From the NCBI RefSeq assembly GCF_055900595.2, contig NZ_CM148325.1: a DNA stretch of 64,000 nt; one strand, given 5' to 3'. The translations under genes and the position numbers were made by a program. Every line of letters begins with the position of its first letter. Position 1 is the first letter of the stretch. Below, in pieces: positions 3,618 to 30,059 of this stretch. The notes beneath the pieces were generated by a model. It was not told where the DNA came from. It saw only the letters and a list, made by a program, of their open reading frames with translations, and ran no database searches.

Positions 3618-4068
3618 ATCCCTGAGCACACACATGAGTACAGCGTGCCGGTGGTGCAGGGCCAACCCGGAAAAGTTCACCGTGTTCATTGAACGTGGCG
3701 GGATAGAGACCACCGGCGAGACGCCGACGTTCGTGTACAACTACCGGCTGGTGATGTTCGTGATGGACTACACGGGCGATCTGGACAACCTGACGCTTCC
3801 ACTGATTGTCTGGCTGGCAGAGAACCAGCCGCAGTTGCTGCTTAATCCTGAGCGCAACAACGATATTCAGTTCACGGCGGCCATTAACGACGACGACAGC
3901 GCGGACGTGCTGTTTGAGCTGCCGTTACGTGAACGCGTGCGCGTCACCCGCAGGGATGACGGCACCCTCATGACAGAACATCTACCGGAGCCGAAATCAC
4001 GCATCCCGCAGGACGGCGACTGGTCACACATTCTGGAGGATGTGACGTGGAACATTGTCACCGGATAA
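3604..4068 (+). CDS. Tail completion protein, P2 gpR-like
   Basis: ATG at 3604 gives 154 aa (P2 gpR about 155 aa); position after the lysis cassette matches P2. Confidence 0.6.
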   Translation: MLKSKSLSTHMSTACRWCRANPEKFTVFIERGGIETTGETPTFVYNYRLVMFVMDYTGDLDNLTLPLIVWLAENQPQLLLNPERNNDIQFTAAINDDDSADVLFELPLRERVRVTRRDDGTLMTEHLPEPKSRIPQDGDWSHILEDVTWNIVTG

Positions 4069-22812: not shown

Positions 22813-24156
22813 TTAACGGTAGCGTTTTATGGGGCTATTTTGATCCTGTTCAGCCAGCCAGGCGAGCTTTTCGCCAATCTTGCCTTCAAGGCCCCTGTTT
22901 GTCGGGAAATAATAGCGTGTTTGTGCTATTTCCGGCGGGAAGTAAACCTCACCGGCAGCATAAGCGTTTGCTTCATCATGAGCATAACGATATTCCTGAC
23001 CGTAGCCCATTTCCTTCATTAATTTCGTCGGCGCATTACGCAAATGAACCGGCACGTCATAATCCGGACGTTCGCGAGCATCGGCCAGCGCGGCTTTAAA
23101 TGCGGTATAGACAGCGTTACTTTTTGGCGCGCAGGCCAGGTAAACAATCGCCTGAGCAATGGCACGTTCACCTTCAGCCGGACCAACGCGAGTAAAGCAA
23201 TCCCAGGCCGCAATTGCCACCTGCATCGCCCGTGGGTCAGCATTACCCACATCTTCAGACGCAATCGCCAGGCAGCGACGCGCGACATATAACGGATCTC
23301 CACCGGCGGTAATAATTCGCGCATACCAGTACAGCGCCGCATCGGGTGCGCTCCCACGCACCGATTTATGCAGTGCAGAGATCAGATCGTAAAAGCGATC
23401 GCCTTTGTTATCAAAGCGGGCGCTACGCTCACCGGCGATTTCGGTCAGTAATTCAGGCTTCAGGACTCGCTTACCGCTATCATCGACTTCAGCCATATCC
23501 GCCATCATTTCCAGCGTATTTAACGCGCGGCGCGCGTCGCCATTCACCAATTCAGCGATGGCGCGTCTTGTTTCACCCGGCAGAACGATATCCTGACCAC
23601 CATAACCGCGGGTTTTGTCTTCCATCGCCTGAGTCAGTACCTGTTCGATATCCTCTGTACTCAGGGATTTCAACAGGTAGACACGGGCACGGGAAAGCAG
23701 TGCCGAATTAAGCTCAAATGACGGGTTTTCAGTGGTTGCACCAATAAAAGTGATGGTGCCGTCTTCGATATGTGGCAGAAATGCATCCTGCTGACTTTTG
23801 TTGAAACGGTGAACTTCGTCAACAAAAAGAATAGTGCGGCGACCAGCATTGCGGTTTTGCCGAGCGCGCTCGATCGCCTCGCGAATCTCTTTCACGCCAG
23901 AGGTGACGGCAGAAATACGTTCCACATCAGCGTTCGCATAACGGGCTATAACTTCAGCGAGGGTTGTTTTGCCGGTACCCGGTGGCCCCCAGAGGATCAT
24001 AGAATGCAAATGCCCAGCTTCGATAGCGCGCGGCAATGGCTTCCCGGCAGCCAGCAAATGTTGCTGGCCGATATACTGTGCTAAATTTTCTGGCCGCATA
24101 CGCGCGGCCAGAGGTTGAAAAGTATTATCCGAAAAATCGAGCGACAGATTGCTCAC
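22813..24156 (-). CDS. rarA: Replication-associated recombination protein A (AAA+ ATPase)
   Basis: 447 aa; Walker [10 protein letters not shown]; conserved position between lolA and serS. Confidence 0.93.
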
Positions 24157-24166
24157 TCAGGTGCCT

Positions 24167-24781
24167 CTACTTACGTTGATCATCTACCGTGACGCCTTGC
24201 GGCGGGGTGAAGGTAAATTTCGCTGCATCCACAGCCCCATTTTGCTGGGATTTCAGCTGATAACTGCTGCGCTGATCGTCCTGCTCCACCGCGCTAAACT
24301 GATGGATTGTGCCATCACGCCCTACGTTAATGGTGAACTGCTTCAAATTGCCATTGCTGGCTTTCGGCGTCAGGACAAAGTCATCGCCATTCTGTTTGAT
24401 ATTGTACTGCTGCCAGTCGCTGGACTGGTTGCGGGCAATCAGCATAAACGGCGTATTACCGGTGGCATCTTTCAGCCAGGTTGCCGTAGCTTGCTCAACG
24501 AACGGGTTATAGAACCACAGTGTTTTACCGTCAGAAACCAGAATGCTTTCGTCAGGTTGAGTCATATGCCAGTTGAATAAGTTTGGACGTTTCACCCACA
24601 GATCGCCCTGACCTTCCTGCACCGCAGCGCCGCTACCGTCAGTCACTTTTTGTGTGAAACTGGCGTGGAAGCTGCTGACTTTATCCAGACGGCTTTTCAG
24701 ATCGCTTGCGGCATCAGCCCAAACACTGGACGCCACTAAACTTGAGAGTAATGCACAGGTGATGGCAATTTTTTTCATCAT
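24167..24781 (-). CDS. lolA: Outer-membrane lipoprotein carrier protein
   Basis: 204 aa with N-terminal signal peptide; conserved position downstream of ftsK. Confidence 0.93.
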
Positions 24782-24936
24782 TGTTCCTCAAATTACGTCA
24801 CTCCCGATCGGGAGTTCCCTCTACTCTCTATTCCAGGCTAATAATCAGCTTGAGGAAAGAAGAAAATACTGAATTTTCAGTTGATAGAGTGCCGGATGCA
24901 ACGCTACCTCGCCTTATCCGGCCTACGATGCATTAA

Positions 24937-27900
24937 TTAGTCAAACGGCGGTGGGGCCAGCACTTCACGATTACCGTTGTGCCCCTGTTCGCTGACAATC
25001 CCTTGCGCTTCCATCTGTTCGATAATACGCGCTGCACGGTTATAACCAATGCGGAACTGACGCTGTACGCCTGAAATTGACGCTTTGCGTTTTTCAATGA
25101 CAAACTGCACCGCCTGATCGAACAACGGATCCAATTCTTCAGCGCCATCGAAACCACCCGCACCACCTTCGCTTTCGCTGTCGGAGGTGATGCCGTCAAC
25201 ATACTGTGGGCGACCACGCGCTTTCCAGTCCTGCACCACGGCATGAACTTCCTGATCGCGAACAAAAGCACCATGAACACGTACCGGCAACGTGGAGTTC
25301 GGCCCAGAGTAAAGCATATCCCCCATACCCAGCAGTGATTCCGCGCCAGCCTGATCAAGAATGGTACGGGAGTCAATCTTGCTGGAAACGGTAAAGGCAA
25401 TACGGGTCGGAATATTCGCTTTAATCAGACCAGTAATAACATCAACCGATGGACGCTGCGTTGCCAGTACGAGGTGGATACCTGCAGCACGGGCTTTTTG
25501 CGCCAGACGTGCTATCAGCTCTTCCACTTTTTTACCTACCGTCATCATCAGGTCGGCAAATTCGTCCACCAACACCACAATGTACGGTTCTTTTTTCAGC
25601 ACCGGATGCTGGGCATCCATACTGTCACCCGGCTTCCAGTACGGGTCTGGAATCGGACGCATCATGCGATCGGCTTCAGCAATTTTTTCGTTATAACCCG
25701 CCAGATTACGCACACCCAGTGCAGACATCAGTTTATAACGACGCTCCATCTCGTTAACACACCAGCGCAGCGCGTTGGCGGCATCTTTCATATCGGTAAC
25801 AACTTCCGTTAACAGGTGCGGAATGCCTTCATAAACCGAAAGCTCCAGCATTTTCGGGTCGATCATGATGAAACGCACATCTTCTGGCTGTGCTTTATAA
25901 AGCATGCTCAGGATCATCGCGTTCACACCGACAGATTTACCGGAACCGGTAGTCCCCGCAACCAACAAGTGCGGCATCTTCGCCAGATCGGCAACCACCG
26001 GCTCACCGGCGATATCTTTACCCAGCACCACGGTTAATGGCGACGGATTATCGCGGAATTTGGCGTTATCCAAAACTTCGCGCAGATAAACGGTTTGTCG
26101 TTTTTTATTCGGTAACTCCAGACCTACATAAGGTTTGCCAGGAATAACTTCAACGACACGCACCGCGACCGTCGAAAGTGAACGGGCAAGGTCACGAGAC
26201 AAGTTAGAAATGCGCGCCGCTTTTACGCCCGGTGCCAGATTCAATTCAAAGCGAGTGATAACCGGTCCCGGAGAGTAATTGACGACATCGGCTTTAATAC
26301 GGAAATCAGCCAGACGCGCTTCCACCAGACGCGCCATTTGTTCAAGCGCAAAGGTATCTACCGGTTCCACTTCGCTCGGTGGCGGTGTCAGCAAATCCAG
26401 AGAAGGCAGCGGCGTCGTCGGTTTATGCAACGGACGGCTGTCGCCATTACGCATCAACAGCGGATGAAGCAGGGTATCCTGCGGCTGCGGCGCAACCGGT
26501 TGTTGTGGCTGCTGATACTGCGGCTGCGGCGCAACTGGCTGTTGCGGCTGCTGATATTGCTGCTGTGGTGCAACCGGCTGTTGCGGCTGCTGATATTGCT
26601 GCTGCGGTGCAACCGGTTGTTGTGGCTGCTGATATTGCTGCTGCGGCGCTACCGGTTGTTGTGGCTGCTGGTATTGCTGCTGCGGCGCTATCGGTTGTTG
26701 CGGCTGCTGATACTGCGCCTGTGGCACTACCGGTTGTTGCGGCTGCTGTACAGGTTCAACAATTGGCGTAAACAGCGGTTCGTGTGGCCCATCATCCAGC
26801 AAAGCTTTCATTGGCGAAAATTCGAAATCATCCAGCGAGAACGGATTCGCCCCAGCCGGTTGTTCGCCCGAATAACGTTGCTGTTGAGTTTGAGCAAACT
26901 GACGAGCCAGTTCTGCCTCTGCTGCAGCATCTGTATCTTCTGCGTTGACTGGCACATCATGTTGATACTGTTCGCCATAGCGTTGCTGCTGCGTCTGGGC
27001 GAACTGACGCGCCAGTTCATCCTGCTGCATCGCATCGATTTCATCATCGTTATACTGATCGCCGGAATCGTACTGATTGCGCTGGGCTTCACGGGCTTTT
27101 TCTTCTGCTGCACGCTGTGAGGGCAGCTTAATGCCATATGACGCCAGTTCACGACGAGTTGGCACCCGGATACGTTTCGGTCGTGGCAACTGCGGGCCAA
27201 TCCCCTCTTTAACCTGCGGACGCGGTCCACCGCTATTTGCCAGACTGAAGACTGGTGCGGCAACGGTTGCGGCAGCCCCCGTCGCCAATGTCGCTTTTTT
27301 CACGCCAGATGCCAGCGGAGAAACAGCGGCAGCGGCTTCTACTGGAGGTACTGCTGTAACAGAAGGTGCTTTCAGCGATGATTTAATCGGTTCTGGTTCT
27401 TTAACCGGTTCAGGAATCGGTTGATACCAGGCCGCAAGTTGTTCACGTTCACGGGCACGCTTCTCTTCCACTTCTTCAAAATAGTAAAGCGGCGGACGTG
27501 CGGGTTTTGTCTCTTCTACAACGGGTTCAGGCTCCGCAACAGGCTGCTGTTCAACGGATTGCGGCTGTTGGTATAACGGTTCTTGAGCGGCTGGCTGCTG
27601 ATAAGTTTGCTCCGTCTGGTATGTAGACTGTGGAGCAAAAGTGGATTGCTGCTCTTCGGCTTGCCAGGCGTTACCTGCCACCGGTTGTTCTGGCGCAGGG
27701 GCGTAATACGGCTGTTGCGCAGACTGTTCCGGCGCAGGAGCGTAGTAAGGTTGTTGCACAGGCTGTTCAGCTGCAGGCGCATAATACGGCTGCTGTGGCT
27801 GTACAGGTTGTTGCAGCGGCTCATTATATTGCACTGCAGGCTGCGCATATTGTGGCTGCTGAGGGTAACCTTCCGGTGCAGGAGCAATAACCGGCTCTCC

Positions 27901-29004
27901 CGTTTGTGGCCCCGGTACAGGCTGCCAGGCTACTGTAGGTTGCGCAGGTGGAACATCAACAGAGGCAACTGGCGGCGTCTGAGTCACAGGTTCAACCGGT
28001 GCAGCCCAGCTTTGTGTCGCCGTGGTAGCAGCAGCTGCTACAGCAACAGGTTCGGTAATTGGCGCACCGTTTAATAATGGATCGTATTCGTCATATTCTG
28101 GCTGCGTTGCACGATTGCCCGAAAAGAGGACGTCGTCAGGGTCGGCAGCCACACCGCGTGCAGTGTAGGTAATCTCTTCTTCATCATCCATCCGCTTACC
28201 GGAGAACAACGCAGCATCTGTTTGCCGCCCCATCGGATTAATGAATTTTTCCGCCAGACGTTTACGACGTGCTAGCGCGCCGCGAAGAATACGGGCACGG
28301 CGCGATTCATGCTGTTTGCCGCGATTTTCATCTTCATATTCTTCGTCGTCTTCATACTCATCTTCATCGACCCAGGTATCATCGCGACGGGTACGATTAC
28401 TGGCGAAGGTGAGAATGTTTAAAATCCAGCCGCCGAGTTTTTCAGCAATGGTCACCCATGACCAACCGGTGAACAGCGTCAGGCCCGCTGCCCAAACGCA
28501 GAGCAGCGCAATAGTTCCCCCGCTACTGTGTAGCAGTGGTTGTAGCGTAGTGCTTAGTAAGCTGCCGATGACGCCACCAGAGGCAAAATACCAGATATCG
28601 TCAGCGTTGATTGCCGCCAGACCACAAGAGGTAAGGATGAGCGCCAAAACGCCAATGATGCGTAGCGAAACGGCAAAATAATCAATGTATTCGTCACTGG
28701 ACTGATGACGCCAGGCAAACCAACAGCCGCCGACGATAATGACGGGAATGGTGTAAGCCATCACGCCAAAAATAAAGAACAGCGTATCTGCCAGCCACGC
28801 ACCGGGCATTCCACCTAAATTATGGATAGGCTCATGCCAGGCCGTTTGCGACCAGCTGGGGTCCGAAGGGTTAAAGCTTAGTAAGGCAGCCATCAACCAG
28901 ACGGCAAACAGGACAATAAGGATCAGCAACGCCTCCAGAAGGCGGCGGCCGCTACTTAACTTTGTCAATGTGACTTCTTTGTCTTCAGTGTATTCCTGGC
29001 TCAA
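24937..29004 (-). CDS. ftsK: DNA translocase FtsK (N-terminal membrane domain, Pro/Gln-rich linker, C-terminal motor and gamma domain)
   Basis: 1355 aa; Walker A GTTGSGKS; long [13 protein letters not shown] linker repeats. Confidence 0.95.
26455..26760. repeat. Tandem nucleotide repeats encoding the FtsK PQ-rich linker
   Basis: Units such as ccggttgttgtggctgctgatattgctgctgcggcgc recur about 8 times. Confidence 0.6.
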
Positions 29005-29082
29005 GAAAGGCTCTCCAGGTTACAGGCTTTTCCTGCCCGATGCTAAAACGGACAACAGTACCAGGTTACCCCAGTACTGTTG

Positions 29083-29098
29083 CTGTATGGATTAACAG
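29083..29098. promoter_or_regulatory. Candidate LexA (SOS) box upstream of ftsK
   Basis: ctgtatggattaacag fits CTG-N10-CAG about 80 bp upstream of the ftsK start; ftsK is known to have an SOS-inducible promoter (dinH). Confidence 0.4.
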
Positions 29099-29137
29099 GA
29101 GTGTAATCAAAATACGCCGATTTTGCACCTGTTCGTG

Positions 29138-29632
29138 TTAGCGCGTCTTAATAACCAGACGATTACTCTGCTTGACTTCTTCCATAACAACGTATGTCCG
29201 TGTGTCATTGACGCCAGGCAGACGCAGCAGGGTTTCCCCCAACAACTTACGGTAAGCTGACATATCCGGCACGCGTGTTTTCAACAGGTAGTCGAAATCA
29301 CCGGATACTAAATGACACTCCTGAATTTCTTCAAGTTTTTGTACAGCGGTATTGAATTGTTCAAACACATCCGGTGCGCCACGATTCAGAGTAATCTCAA
29401 CGAATACCAGAAGTGATGCATCCAGATAATGGGGGTTCAGCAGCGCTGTATAGCCCTGAATAAACCCTTGTCTTTCCAGCCGACGCACACGCTCAAGGCA
29501 CGGCGTTGGGGAAAGTCCCACACGTTTAGAAAGCTCGACGTTAGAAATACGCCCATCCTTTTGCAACTCATTAAGAATGTTACGATCGATACGGTCGAGA
29601 TCTTTGCCAGGGCGCTTCTTGCTATCTACCAT
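29138..29632 (-). CDS. lrp: Leucine-responsive regulatory protein
   Basis: Internal ATG at 29632 gives the 164-aa protein MVDSKKRPGKDLDRIDRNILNELQKDGRISNVELSKRVGLSPTPCLERVRRLERQG...; the 18-codon upstream extension in the track is rejected. Confidence 0.95.
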   Translation of the reverse strand: MVDSKKRPGKDLDRIDRNILNELQKDGRISNVELSKRVGLSPTPCLERVRRLERQGFIQGYTALLNPHYLDASLLVFVEITLNRGAPDVFEQFNTAVQKLEEIQECHLVSGDFDYLLKTRVPDMSAYRKLLGETLLRLPGVNDTRTYVVMEEVKQSNRLVIKTR

Positions 29633-30059
29633 TATTATTGTCTCTCTGTATTCCTTCCCTACTCCTGTCTGACCCTGAAACATCACTGTTCAGAGTCGCT
29701 ACCCGTCACGATAGACCGAAATCATTAAGATTCACGGCGCGCAATGCCTGGTCTACGGTGAGAAGACCGTTGCCTGGTGGCAGCTATCGACATCACGAAT
29801 GGCGTCTGTCCACGCCATACGTAGATTTCACTAGCACGGTAAACATGGTATTTACATGCATGGTTATGCGCATATAAGAATACTGTTTTTTTTCTTCCTC
29901 GAATGTTTTCGCAAAACACCAGGGGATTGTCAAAGCAAAACATCGATTTTTAGTACAACATGCCAGATATTCATTAACAGGGGCGTTTATTCATCATTTA
30001 ATCGGCTTATAACGCGGGAAATTTAAGTAGCAGAGGTGATAATGCCGGAGGGAGTTTGA

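Follow-up and report, generated by a model that had tools for sequence, protein, structure and literature searches.

An intact Escherichia coli ftsK allele with copy-number differences at two 39-bp linker minisatellites

The stretch of DNA analysed here (hereafter the window) comprises 64,000 nucleotides of contig NZ_CM148325.1, from assembly GCF_055900595.2. Its ftsK gene is very probably normal and intact, and 26 codons longer than that of K-12 through in-frame copy-number differences at two 39-bp minisatellites, both situated in the linker, rich in proline and glutamine, that joins the membrane anchor of the protein to its motor. This is ordinary variation. Changes of repeat number in the FtsK linker are already known, and are already used for strain typing.

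The gene occupies positions 24937..29004 on the minus strand, begins with TTG, and encodes a cell-division DNA translocase of 1355 aa, as first predicted; the open reading frame list, Pfam and synteny all support the assignment. The N-terminal four-helix membrane domain of FtsK/SpoIIIE translocases is present at aa 20–191 (FtsK_4TM, E = 5e-42, 143.8 bits against a cutoff of 23.1). The C-terminal alpha/beta motor, with its P-loop ATPase core, spans FtsK_alpha (aa 866–966) and FtsK_SpoIIIE (aa 974–1187; E = 9e-88), includes a Walker A motif (GTTGSGKS) and a ten-residue Walker B segment, and lies within the region aligned by the structure 2IUS (aa 844–1355, E = 0). The gamma domain, a winged helix that interacts with KOPS and XerD, follows at aa 1290–1350 (FtsK_gamma, E = 9e-29), where structures 2J5P and 5DCF align from aa 1271 and 1286, respectively, to aa 1355. 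The gene order lrp-ftsK-lolA-rarA, judged from open reading frames against the K-12 annotation, is the same in the window and in K-12, with colinear blastn matches across the region, and ftsK is annotated in 5,425 of 5,426 complete E. coli genomes. From motor to gamma domain the protein differs from that of K-12 by one substitution only, and the 97% identity of the two proteins overall predicts that this FtsK would carry out ATP-dependent, KOPS-directed translocation and would activate XerCD recombination at dif. Structures solved to date start only at aa 821–844, directly C-terminal of the second of the repeat arrays described below, and a review characterizes the FtsK linker as unstructured and different between species.

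The FtsK of K-12 MG1655 (b0890, NP_415410.1), given in the original prediction as about 1329 aa, does have 1329 aa, is encoded by 3990 bp and likewise starts with TTG; it is the same gene in the same synteny, with the same order of domains. Outside the arrays the two genes are 97.2% identical in nucleotide sequence, and the two proteins share 1316 identical residues, differ by 13 substitutions, and have non-repeat portions of exactly the same length, 1218 aa. The original prediction held that the allele in the window carries extra repeat units, to be verified by aligning it with K-12 and counting. The repeat numbers do differ, and the window does have more units, but the PQ-rich array that had been noted supplies just 13 of the 26 additional residues. 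Global alignment with MAFFT places exactly two insertions of 13 aa in the window's FtsK, at aa 416–428 and aa 760–772, which rules out one array as the source of the whole difference. One array, here called A, has three units against two in K-12; the other, array B, has 6.9 against 5.9; each contributes 13 aa.

Array A, a 39-bp tandem repeat of a 13-residue peptide, lies at 27679..27795 on the minus strand (aa 404–442), some 340 residues upstream of array B. It was recognized by TRF (27686..27792), by unit dissection and by a separate repeat search, and corresponds to allele 3 of the MLVA locus ms06. It accounts for half of the length gap, and the first reading of the sequence overlooked it. 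Its units are 77–79% identical to one another. The first matches the first unit of K-12 with three nucleotide differences, and the third matches the second unit of K-12 with one. The unit between them (27718..27756, minus strand, aa 417–429) has no K-12 counterpart when units are compared; it differs from both K-12 units at 10–11 of 39 nucleotides (about 26–28%), and from its own neighbours at 9–11. Because it is so distant from both K-12 units, this middle unit must be old, rather than a recent gain.

Array B, also of 39-bp units encoding 13 residues, lies at 26479..26745 on the minus strand (aa 754–842), and is the MLVA locus CVN001/ms07. TRF reports 6.9 copies at 26480..26748, with 90% matches to the consensus, and a separate repeat search reports seven. 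The array is thus real, as had been proposed; the proposed seven or more copies of the PQ peptide, however, prove to be six complete codon-phased units and a truncated seventh, of which only three carry the quoted peptide exactly. Nor are the repeats 'near-perfect' in DNA: every unit differs from all the others, pairs of units average 84–86% identity, and the longest exact run at a lag of 39 is 29 nucleotides. The 13-aa gap relative to K-12 is drawn by MAFFT at aa 760–772 (26689..26727, minus strand), but scrambled orthology among the units makes any position for it inside the array arbitrary. The unit-by-unit distance matrix is a mosaic, with no colinear orthology between the window's array B and that of K-12, and the exact 'extra' unit therefore cannot be named.

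The original prediction implied a recent expansion in this strain, by fresh slippage duplications of near-perfect repeats. The 39-bp tandem period, and the three consecutive units of array B that encode the same peptide, would fit such an event. The DNA itself tells a different story: none of the units are identical, the array A unit missing from K-12 is some 26–28% divergent from the K-12 units and almost as distant from its neighbours, and the first two units of array B have no close K-12 counterpart, differing by at least four nucleotides. Strains of the same lineage from Korea, Mali and Japan, moreover, have exactly the same arrays. We reject recent expansion, the chance of which we consider negligible. 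Mis-assembly of the repeat number we regard as just as unlikely. Tandem repeats are a classic cause of collapse and expansion in short-read assemblies, but this array is just 267 bp long, each of its units can be told apart in DNA, three complete genomes that were sequenced independently share its sequence, and no other copy numbers are as common in the species as those of the window.

Three long open reading frames on the plus strand, antisense to ftsK, had been set aside at the outset as spurious products of the repeats. Their coordinates stand, and so does the judgement that they are spurious, but they owe their length mostly to codon composition, not to repetition. The first, 26338..27120 (260 aa), and the third, 27583..28074 (163 aa, over array A), lie in exact antisense codon register; the second, 26379..26771 (130 aa), is the only one essentially coextensive with an array, array B, whose stop-free unit is repeated seven times. 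Shuffling the order of codons in the linker destroys the repeats yet leaves open frames equally long: for 26338..27120, 231 open codons were observed against a null mean of 232, and 45% of shuffles were at least as long. One off-register frame in the linker slightly exceeds its null (115 open codons, where the 95th percentile is 95), an excess that we attribute to the repeated stop-free unit and to the nine frame-by-segment combinations tested. None of the three has a Pfam domain, and the ftsK interval of K-12 is annotated with ftsK alone; that they are real genes can be dismissed.

How ordinary the window's allele is becomes apparent when others are examined. We counted the units of each array in a panel of 16 E. 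coli ftsK alleles. The sequence other than the two arrays has the same length in all 16, 1218 aa (3657 nt), every difference in length lies in the arrays, and none of the 16 is frameshifted. Array A has one, two, three or four units, array B has 4.9 to 8.9, and duplications of a five-residue sub-unit, PQYQQ, also occur. Both arrays thus behave as variable-number tandem repeats, with units head to tail at a period of 39 (by TRF, and with a spacing of 39 throughout) and copy numbers that differ from strain to strain. Total length is homoplasic: in the panel, 1329 aa arises from two units in array A and six in array B, from three and five, and from one and seven.

Frequencies were estimated from systematic samples of 40–60 rows from the 5,426 complete genomes, a clone-biased collection, and are to be read as such rather than as full counts. 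The span of ftsK, in a sample of 40, was 4107 bp in 13, 3990 bp in nine, 4068 bp in seven, 4044 bp in four, 4029 bp and 4146 bp in two each, and 4083 bp and 4020 bp in one each; one match was partial. Array B, in a sample of 60, spanned the same length as in the window in 27, was 39 bp shorter in 21, 24 bp shorter in three, 78 bp shorter in one and 15 bp longer in one; the alignments of the remaining seven were split, and the three of these that were inspected all have longer arrays. Array A, also in a sample of 60, had three units in 21, four in 20, two in 18 and one in one. In these samples, then, the window belongs to the commonest class at both arrays. The E. coli FtsK lengths that we saw range from 1329 to 1381 aa, and 1368 aa was the commonest in the sample. 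'Extra' units are extra only in a relative sense, and it is K-12 that is among the shortest for the species.

The window's ftsK itself comes from a rare, deep-branching lineage of E. coli. Eight genomes are at least 99% identical to it over ftsK, and the same number is obtained for each array region and for rarA-lolA. Three of the eight match it in both the length and the array structure of ftsK. The FtsK of strains Z0117EC0005, E200086 and AST85 (WP_032302791.1, 1355 aa) has three units in array A and 6.9 in array B, and its gene is identical to the window's at 4065 of 4068 nucleotides. The three differences are all non-synonymous (V598I, L845R and Q1251E), and at each of these sites the window has the residue of the other panel alleles. 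The state of the arrays is fixed within the lineage.

Both arrays turn out to be established typing loci. In-silico PCR with the published CVN001, ms06 and ms07 primers was carried out on the window and on the panel alleles. CVN001 comes from the generic MLVA scheme for E. coli published by Lindstedt et al. in 2007, which PMC8143711 and PMC3877011 employ; ms06 and ms07 belong to a Shigella/E. coli panel used in PMC8215070. The primer pairs of CVN001 and ms07 both flank array B, with its 39-bp unit, in the window as in every one of the 16 panel alleles. Those of CVN001 match the window at 26843–26861 and 26378–26397 and yield 484 bp, allele 6, compared with 445 bp, allele 5, for K-12; the ms07 product is 626 bp (26383..27008). 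There is one mismatch in the CVN001 reverse site and one in the ms07 forward site, which reflect the divergence of the lineage. The published CVN001 formula returns whole-number alleles, 4–8, for 12 of the 16; the other four, which have a sub-unit indel of 15 bp, come out as non-integers.

The ms06 primers flank array A, likewise with a 39-bp unit, and yield 340 bp from the window (27566..27905, allele 3, with three mismatches in the reverse-primer site) against 301 bp from K-12 (allele 2). The predicted products of 301, 340 and 379 bp match the published range of 301–379 bp, alleles 2, 3 and 4 (PMC8215070); the one-unit allele of strain SW07164, 262 bp, falls outside the range reported there. 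The literature that our searches on ftsK and VNTR or MLVA returned consists of Salmonella papers only, none of which names E. coli ftsK, and the link to the E. coli loci emerged from the primer sequences alone. In Salmonella enterica the orthologue has a similar array—SENTR2, the same as STTR7—that is also an in-frame 39-bp VNTR of the PQ-rich linker used in typing, albeit in another genus and with a higher copy number, 9.3 in S. Enteritidis NCTC 13349.

The units of both arrays are old and constrained in peptide sequence, their differences being mostly synonymous, and not the result of fresh expansion. Synonymous divergence between units (pS) is 0.50 in array B and 0.82 in array A, with pN/pS of about 0.1, and the linker outside the repeats is under strong purifying selection, with dN/dS of 0.04–0.07. 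A hypermutable, phase-variable contingency locus was also considered and rejected: the 39-bp units are always in frame and, in array B, 84–86% identical with no exact lag-39 run beyond 29 nucleotides, and the state is the same in three lineage mates. To judge from the anatomy of the arrays, copy number would change when units occasionally recombine unequally or slip during replication, always in frame, 39 being 3 x 13, and would do so slowly because the units have only short exact matches in common. A unit of 13 residues more or less, in a flexible tether of some 650, would probably alter FtsK function little or not at all. This presumption of near-neutrality rests on the wide natural range of copy number and on one Salmonella experiment with a single phenotype: exchange in S. 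Enteritidis of ftsK linker-repeat alleles that differ by a natural indel left survival in egg white, the sole phenotype assayed, unchanged.

Might linker length be tuned adaptively, instead, with lineage-specific selection on copy number setting how far the motor reaches from the septum, or how many PQ modules are available to bind the divisome? The peptides of the units have been kept while their synonymous sites became half to fully saturated, the rest of the linker is strongly purified, copy number stays within narrow bounds (1–4 in array A, about 5–9 in array B), and, according to the review, regions of the linker contact FtsQ, L, I and Z. But the arrays show none of the hypermutability of contingency loci, their units having diverged and their state being fixed within lineages; different combinations of A and B give equal total lengths with no obvious pattern; the allele exchange in S. 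Enteritidis was without phenotype in the assay used; and in MLVA the locus acts as a phylogenetic marker. We think such tuning improbable, and prefer ordinary copy-number variation, which no result of the analysis contradicts. Conservation of the peptides shows that the sequence of the unit itself matters; that its copy number has some effect may also be so. Slightly better odds, though still long ones, attach to the broader proposition that the 13-residue PQ units are functional modules rather than mere spacer, and that variation at ms06 and CVN001 might adjust tether length or divisome contacts quantitatively, with optima that differ between lineages.

For those who compare genomes, the consequences are simple. 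The 1329 aa of FtsK in K-12 does not hold for E. coli as a whole, and a mismatch with it need not be flagged as unusual in genome scans. Nor can repeat state be read reliably from total length, which depends on two independent arrays and comes out equal for different combinations of them. In-silico typing assigns the window CVN001 allele 6 and ms06 allele 3. What remains of biological interest is one thing only: the repeat peptides of a supposedly unstructured linker are clearly under purifying selection.

The ftsK gene of the window (24937..29004, minus strand in the ORF list) starts with TTG and encodes a protein of 1355 amino acids (aa). Its counterpart in K-12 MG1655 (NC_000913.3 933224..937213), also with a TTG start, is 3990 bp long and encodes 1329 aa, as the original prediction had correctly stated. 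A global alignment of the two proteins pairs 1316 identical residues and contains 13 substitutions; its only two gaps, at window FtsK aa 416–428 and aa 760–772, are each 13 residues long. Each gap falls in a tandem repeat of 39 bp (13 aa) on the minus strand, within the linker. The first belongs to what we call array A (27679..27795), with three units against two in K-12; the second belongs to the PQ-rich array B (26479..26745; TRF places it at 26480..26748 and counts 6.9 copies, at 90% matches to the consensus), which comprises six complete units and a seventh that is truncated, where K-12 has 5.9. Two separate gaps rule out a single array as the source of all 26 aa and, because one of them lies in array A, array B accounts for only half of the length difference. 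The original prediction had named, as the probable source of the excess, extra units in one array of at least seven near-perfect copies. That array is real, and it does hold one unit more than that of K-12, but the count is 6.9, and half of the excess comes from array A, which went unmentioned. The observation stands, then, with its interpretation half right: there are two arrays, not one, and their units are not near-perfect.

No two of the array B units are identical in DNA sequence, and their mean pairwise identity is 84–86%. The longest exact match at a lag of 39 is 29 nt in array B, and 8 nt in array A. Synonymous codon differences outnumber non-synonymous ones among array B units 1–6 (54 versus 19), and pooled pS is 0.50 in array B and 0.82 in array A, with pN/pS about 0.1. 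Window unit 1 of array A resembles K-12 unit 1 (three differences), and window unit 3 resembles K-12 unit 2 (one difference). At 10–11 of its 39 positions the middle unit (27718..27756) departs from either K-12 unit, which excludes a fresh duplication and marks it as an old unit, absent from K-12. The distance matrix of array B units between window and K-12 is a mosaic without colinear orthology—the pattern that repeated unequal exchange would produce—and the extra B unit therefore cannot be named. The linker contains a third duplication, too, of a 14-residue peptide that occurs twice, 35 residues apart, in the window (26977–27018 and 26872–26913; ftsK aa 663–676 and 698–711) and in K-12; synonymous changes at 7 of 42 nucleotides are all that separates the copies. 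A weak 6-bp periodicity (28327–28368; seven copies, 69% matches by TRF) corresponds to an acidic stretch directly after the membrane domain, constant in length among the 16 E. coli alleles of our panel.

The domain architecture of the protein is complete: Pfam matches FtsK_4TM at aa 20–191, FtsK_alpha at 866–966, FtsK_SpoIIIE at 974–1187 and FtsK_gamma at 1290–1350. Residues 844–1355 can be aligned to the E. coli FtsK crystal structure 2IUS; none of the solved structures aligned to the window protein covers the linker. Gene order matches that of K-12, with lrp upstream and lolA and rarA downstream. Mechanical ORF calling begins lrp at an upstream GTG (29138–29686, 182 aa), whereas the gene is annotated in K-12 and all fetched relatives as 495 bp (164 aa), from an internal start at MVDSKKRPGKD; the longer ORF is a calling artefact and no genuine extension. 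Between lrp and ftsK, some 80 bp ahead of the ftsK start, lies the sole perfect match in the 64 kb to the LexA-box core CTGT-N8-ACAG (CTGTATGGATTAACAG, 29083–29098), which we take to fit the SOS-inducible dinH promoter of ftsK. Matches to this core with at most one mismatch occur across the 64-kb window at chance level in total.

Three long antisense ORFs had been noticed on the plus strand and attributed to the repeats. All three exist (26338..27120, 26379..26771 and 27583..28074), and none has a Pfam match, but their main cause is codon composition. The first and third occupy the exact antisense codon register, in which a stop arises only opposite one of the rare sense codons TTA, CTA or TCA; Leu and Ser together make up only 8% of the linker. 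When codon order within the linker was shuffled, destroying the repeats, the longest antisense open frame averaged 232 codons against 231 observed, and 45% of shuffles equalled or exceeded the observed value. These ORFs are thus mainly by-products of codon composition, and the motor domain behaves in the same way. In 26379..26771 alone, the length follows directly from seven copies of a unit that contains no stop.

The repeat state of the window is unremarkable in E. coli. Matches to ftsK were found in 5,425 of 5,426 complete genomes, and a systematic sample of 40 rows from their ranking gave gene spans of 4107 bp (13), 3990 bp (9), 4068 bp, that of the window (7), 4044 bp (4), 4029 and 4146 bp (2 each), and 4083 bp, 4020 bp and a partial match (1 each). 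These frequencies, like those of the arrays below, are those of a clone-biased database, not of nature. The K-12 span was the shortest. Region-specific searches, each sampled systematically at 60 rows, resolved the arrays separately. Array A had three units in 21 rows, four in 20, two in 18 and one in 1; array B had the window span in 27, the K-12 class (−39 bp) in 21, −78 bp in 1, +15 bp in 1, −24 bp in 3, and split alignments in 7, of which the three inspected (L012, L013 and L015) all have longer arrays. In 15 annotated alleles chosen to cover all length classes, the part of the protein outside both arrays measures exactly 1218 aa (3657 nt) throughout, with 1–4 units in array A and 4.9–8.9 in array B. 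Some array B alleles carry duplications of a 5-residue sub-unit, PQYQQ, whose 15 bp account for the lengths not divisible by 39. Repeat anatomy and polymorphism are both directly visible here, and total length is homoplasic: 1329 aa is reached with two A and six B units (K-12; 5.9 rounded), three and five (EC100) or one and seven (SW07164), and 1355 aa with three and seven (the window, APEC O78) or two and eight (Z1323HEC0067). In every search, eight matching places for the chromosomal ftsK and rarA–lolA lay on plasmid-labelled records; one of the 5,426 genomes lacked any match, and in strain N96 (NZ_CM169999.1) ftsK matched two places, the better covering only 70%. These cases may stem from replicons with wrong labels, from disruption of the gene or from faulty assembly.

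Such variation is ordinary and well known. A 39-bp ftsK VNTR, SENTR2 (STTR7), belongs to Salmonella MLVA schemes (PMC2430564), and published E. coli primers flank both arrays, which are thus long-established VNTR markers. The CVN001 primers of the generic E. coli MLVA (PMC8143711) match at 26843–26861 (no mismatches) and 26378–26397 (one), with array B between them; by the published formula, (PS-250)/39, the 484-bp window product is allele 6 and the 445-bp K-12 product allele 5. Array B contains one or two additional PQYQQ sub-units in some alleles and closes with PQPH rather than PQPQ in several (L004, L005, L007 and L013); such alleles give non-integer values (4.77, 5.38, 6.38 and 7.38), for which rounding is expected in MLVA practice. 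In the Shigella/E. coli panel (PMC8215070), ms06 (27566..27905; 340 bp, 301 bp in K-12) flanks array A and ms07 (26383..27008; 626 bp, 587 bp in K-12) flanks array B. The ms06 sizes predicted among our alleles, 301, 340 and 379 bp, coincide with the published range of 301–379 bp for alleles 2, 3 and 4. The ms06 reverse-primer site (27566–27585) has three mismatches in the window lineage, so standard PCR might amplify poorly or fail in such strains; the ms07 forward primer falls within the first copy of the 14-residue peptide.

Comparison of the rarA–lolA–ftsK–lrp stretch (22813–29686) shows that the window belongs to a rare, deep-branching lineage of E. coli. Its flanking genes are 95–99% identical to those of K-12, trxB and rarA only about 95%, and outside the arrays its ftsK is 96.7–97.2% identical to, and about equidistant from, every other panel allele. 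Across ftsK, each array region and rarA–lolA, exactly eight of the 5,426 genomes reach at least 99% identity. Three of these, one canine (Korea) and two human (Mali and Japan) in origin, share one identical ftsK (WP_032302791.1, 1355 aa), whose arrays are those of the window; copy number is therefore a stable property of the lineage, not an event specific to one strain. The window gene differs from theirs at only three nucleotides, all non-synonymous: V598I, L845R and Q1251E (window 27213, 26471 and 25254; ftsK nt 1792, 2534 and 3751). At all three, the window keeps the residue of the other panel alleles, which makes those of the relatives the derived ones. A set of three non-synonymous changes with no synonymous one is odd where dN/dS is about 0.03, though such numbers are too small for interpretation.

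The changes in copy number would be explained if diverged 39-bp units now and then recombined unequally or slipped during replication. Since 39 is 3 × 13, the reading frame would always be preserved, and since stretches of exact homology between units are short, such events would be infrequent. According to a review (PMC5357621), the linker is an unstructured PQ-rich tether of some 650 residues, widely variable in length between species, parts of which touch divisome proteins, and when natural S. Enteritidis ftsK alleles differing by two linker repeats were exchanged, survival in egg white was unchanged (PMC6137255). For these reasons, gain or loss of one 13-residue unit is most probably near-neutral. 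Even so, the linker is under constraint rather than free to drift: measured against other E. coli, the window gene has a dN/dS of 0.04–0.07 in the non-repeat linker, compared with 0.01–0.025 for the motor, and conservation extends to the repeat peptides. With such constraint, a quantitative effect of copy number has a small probability.
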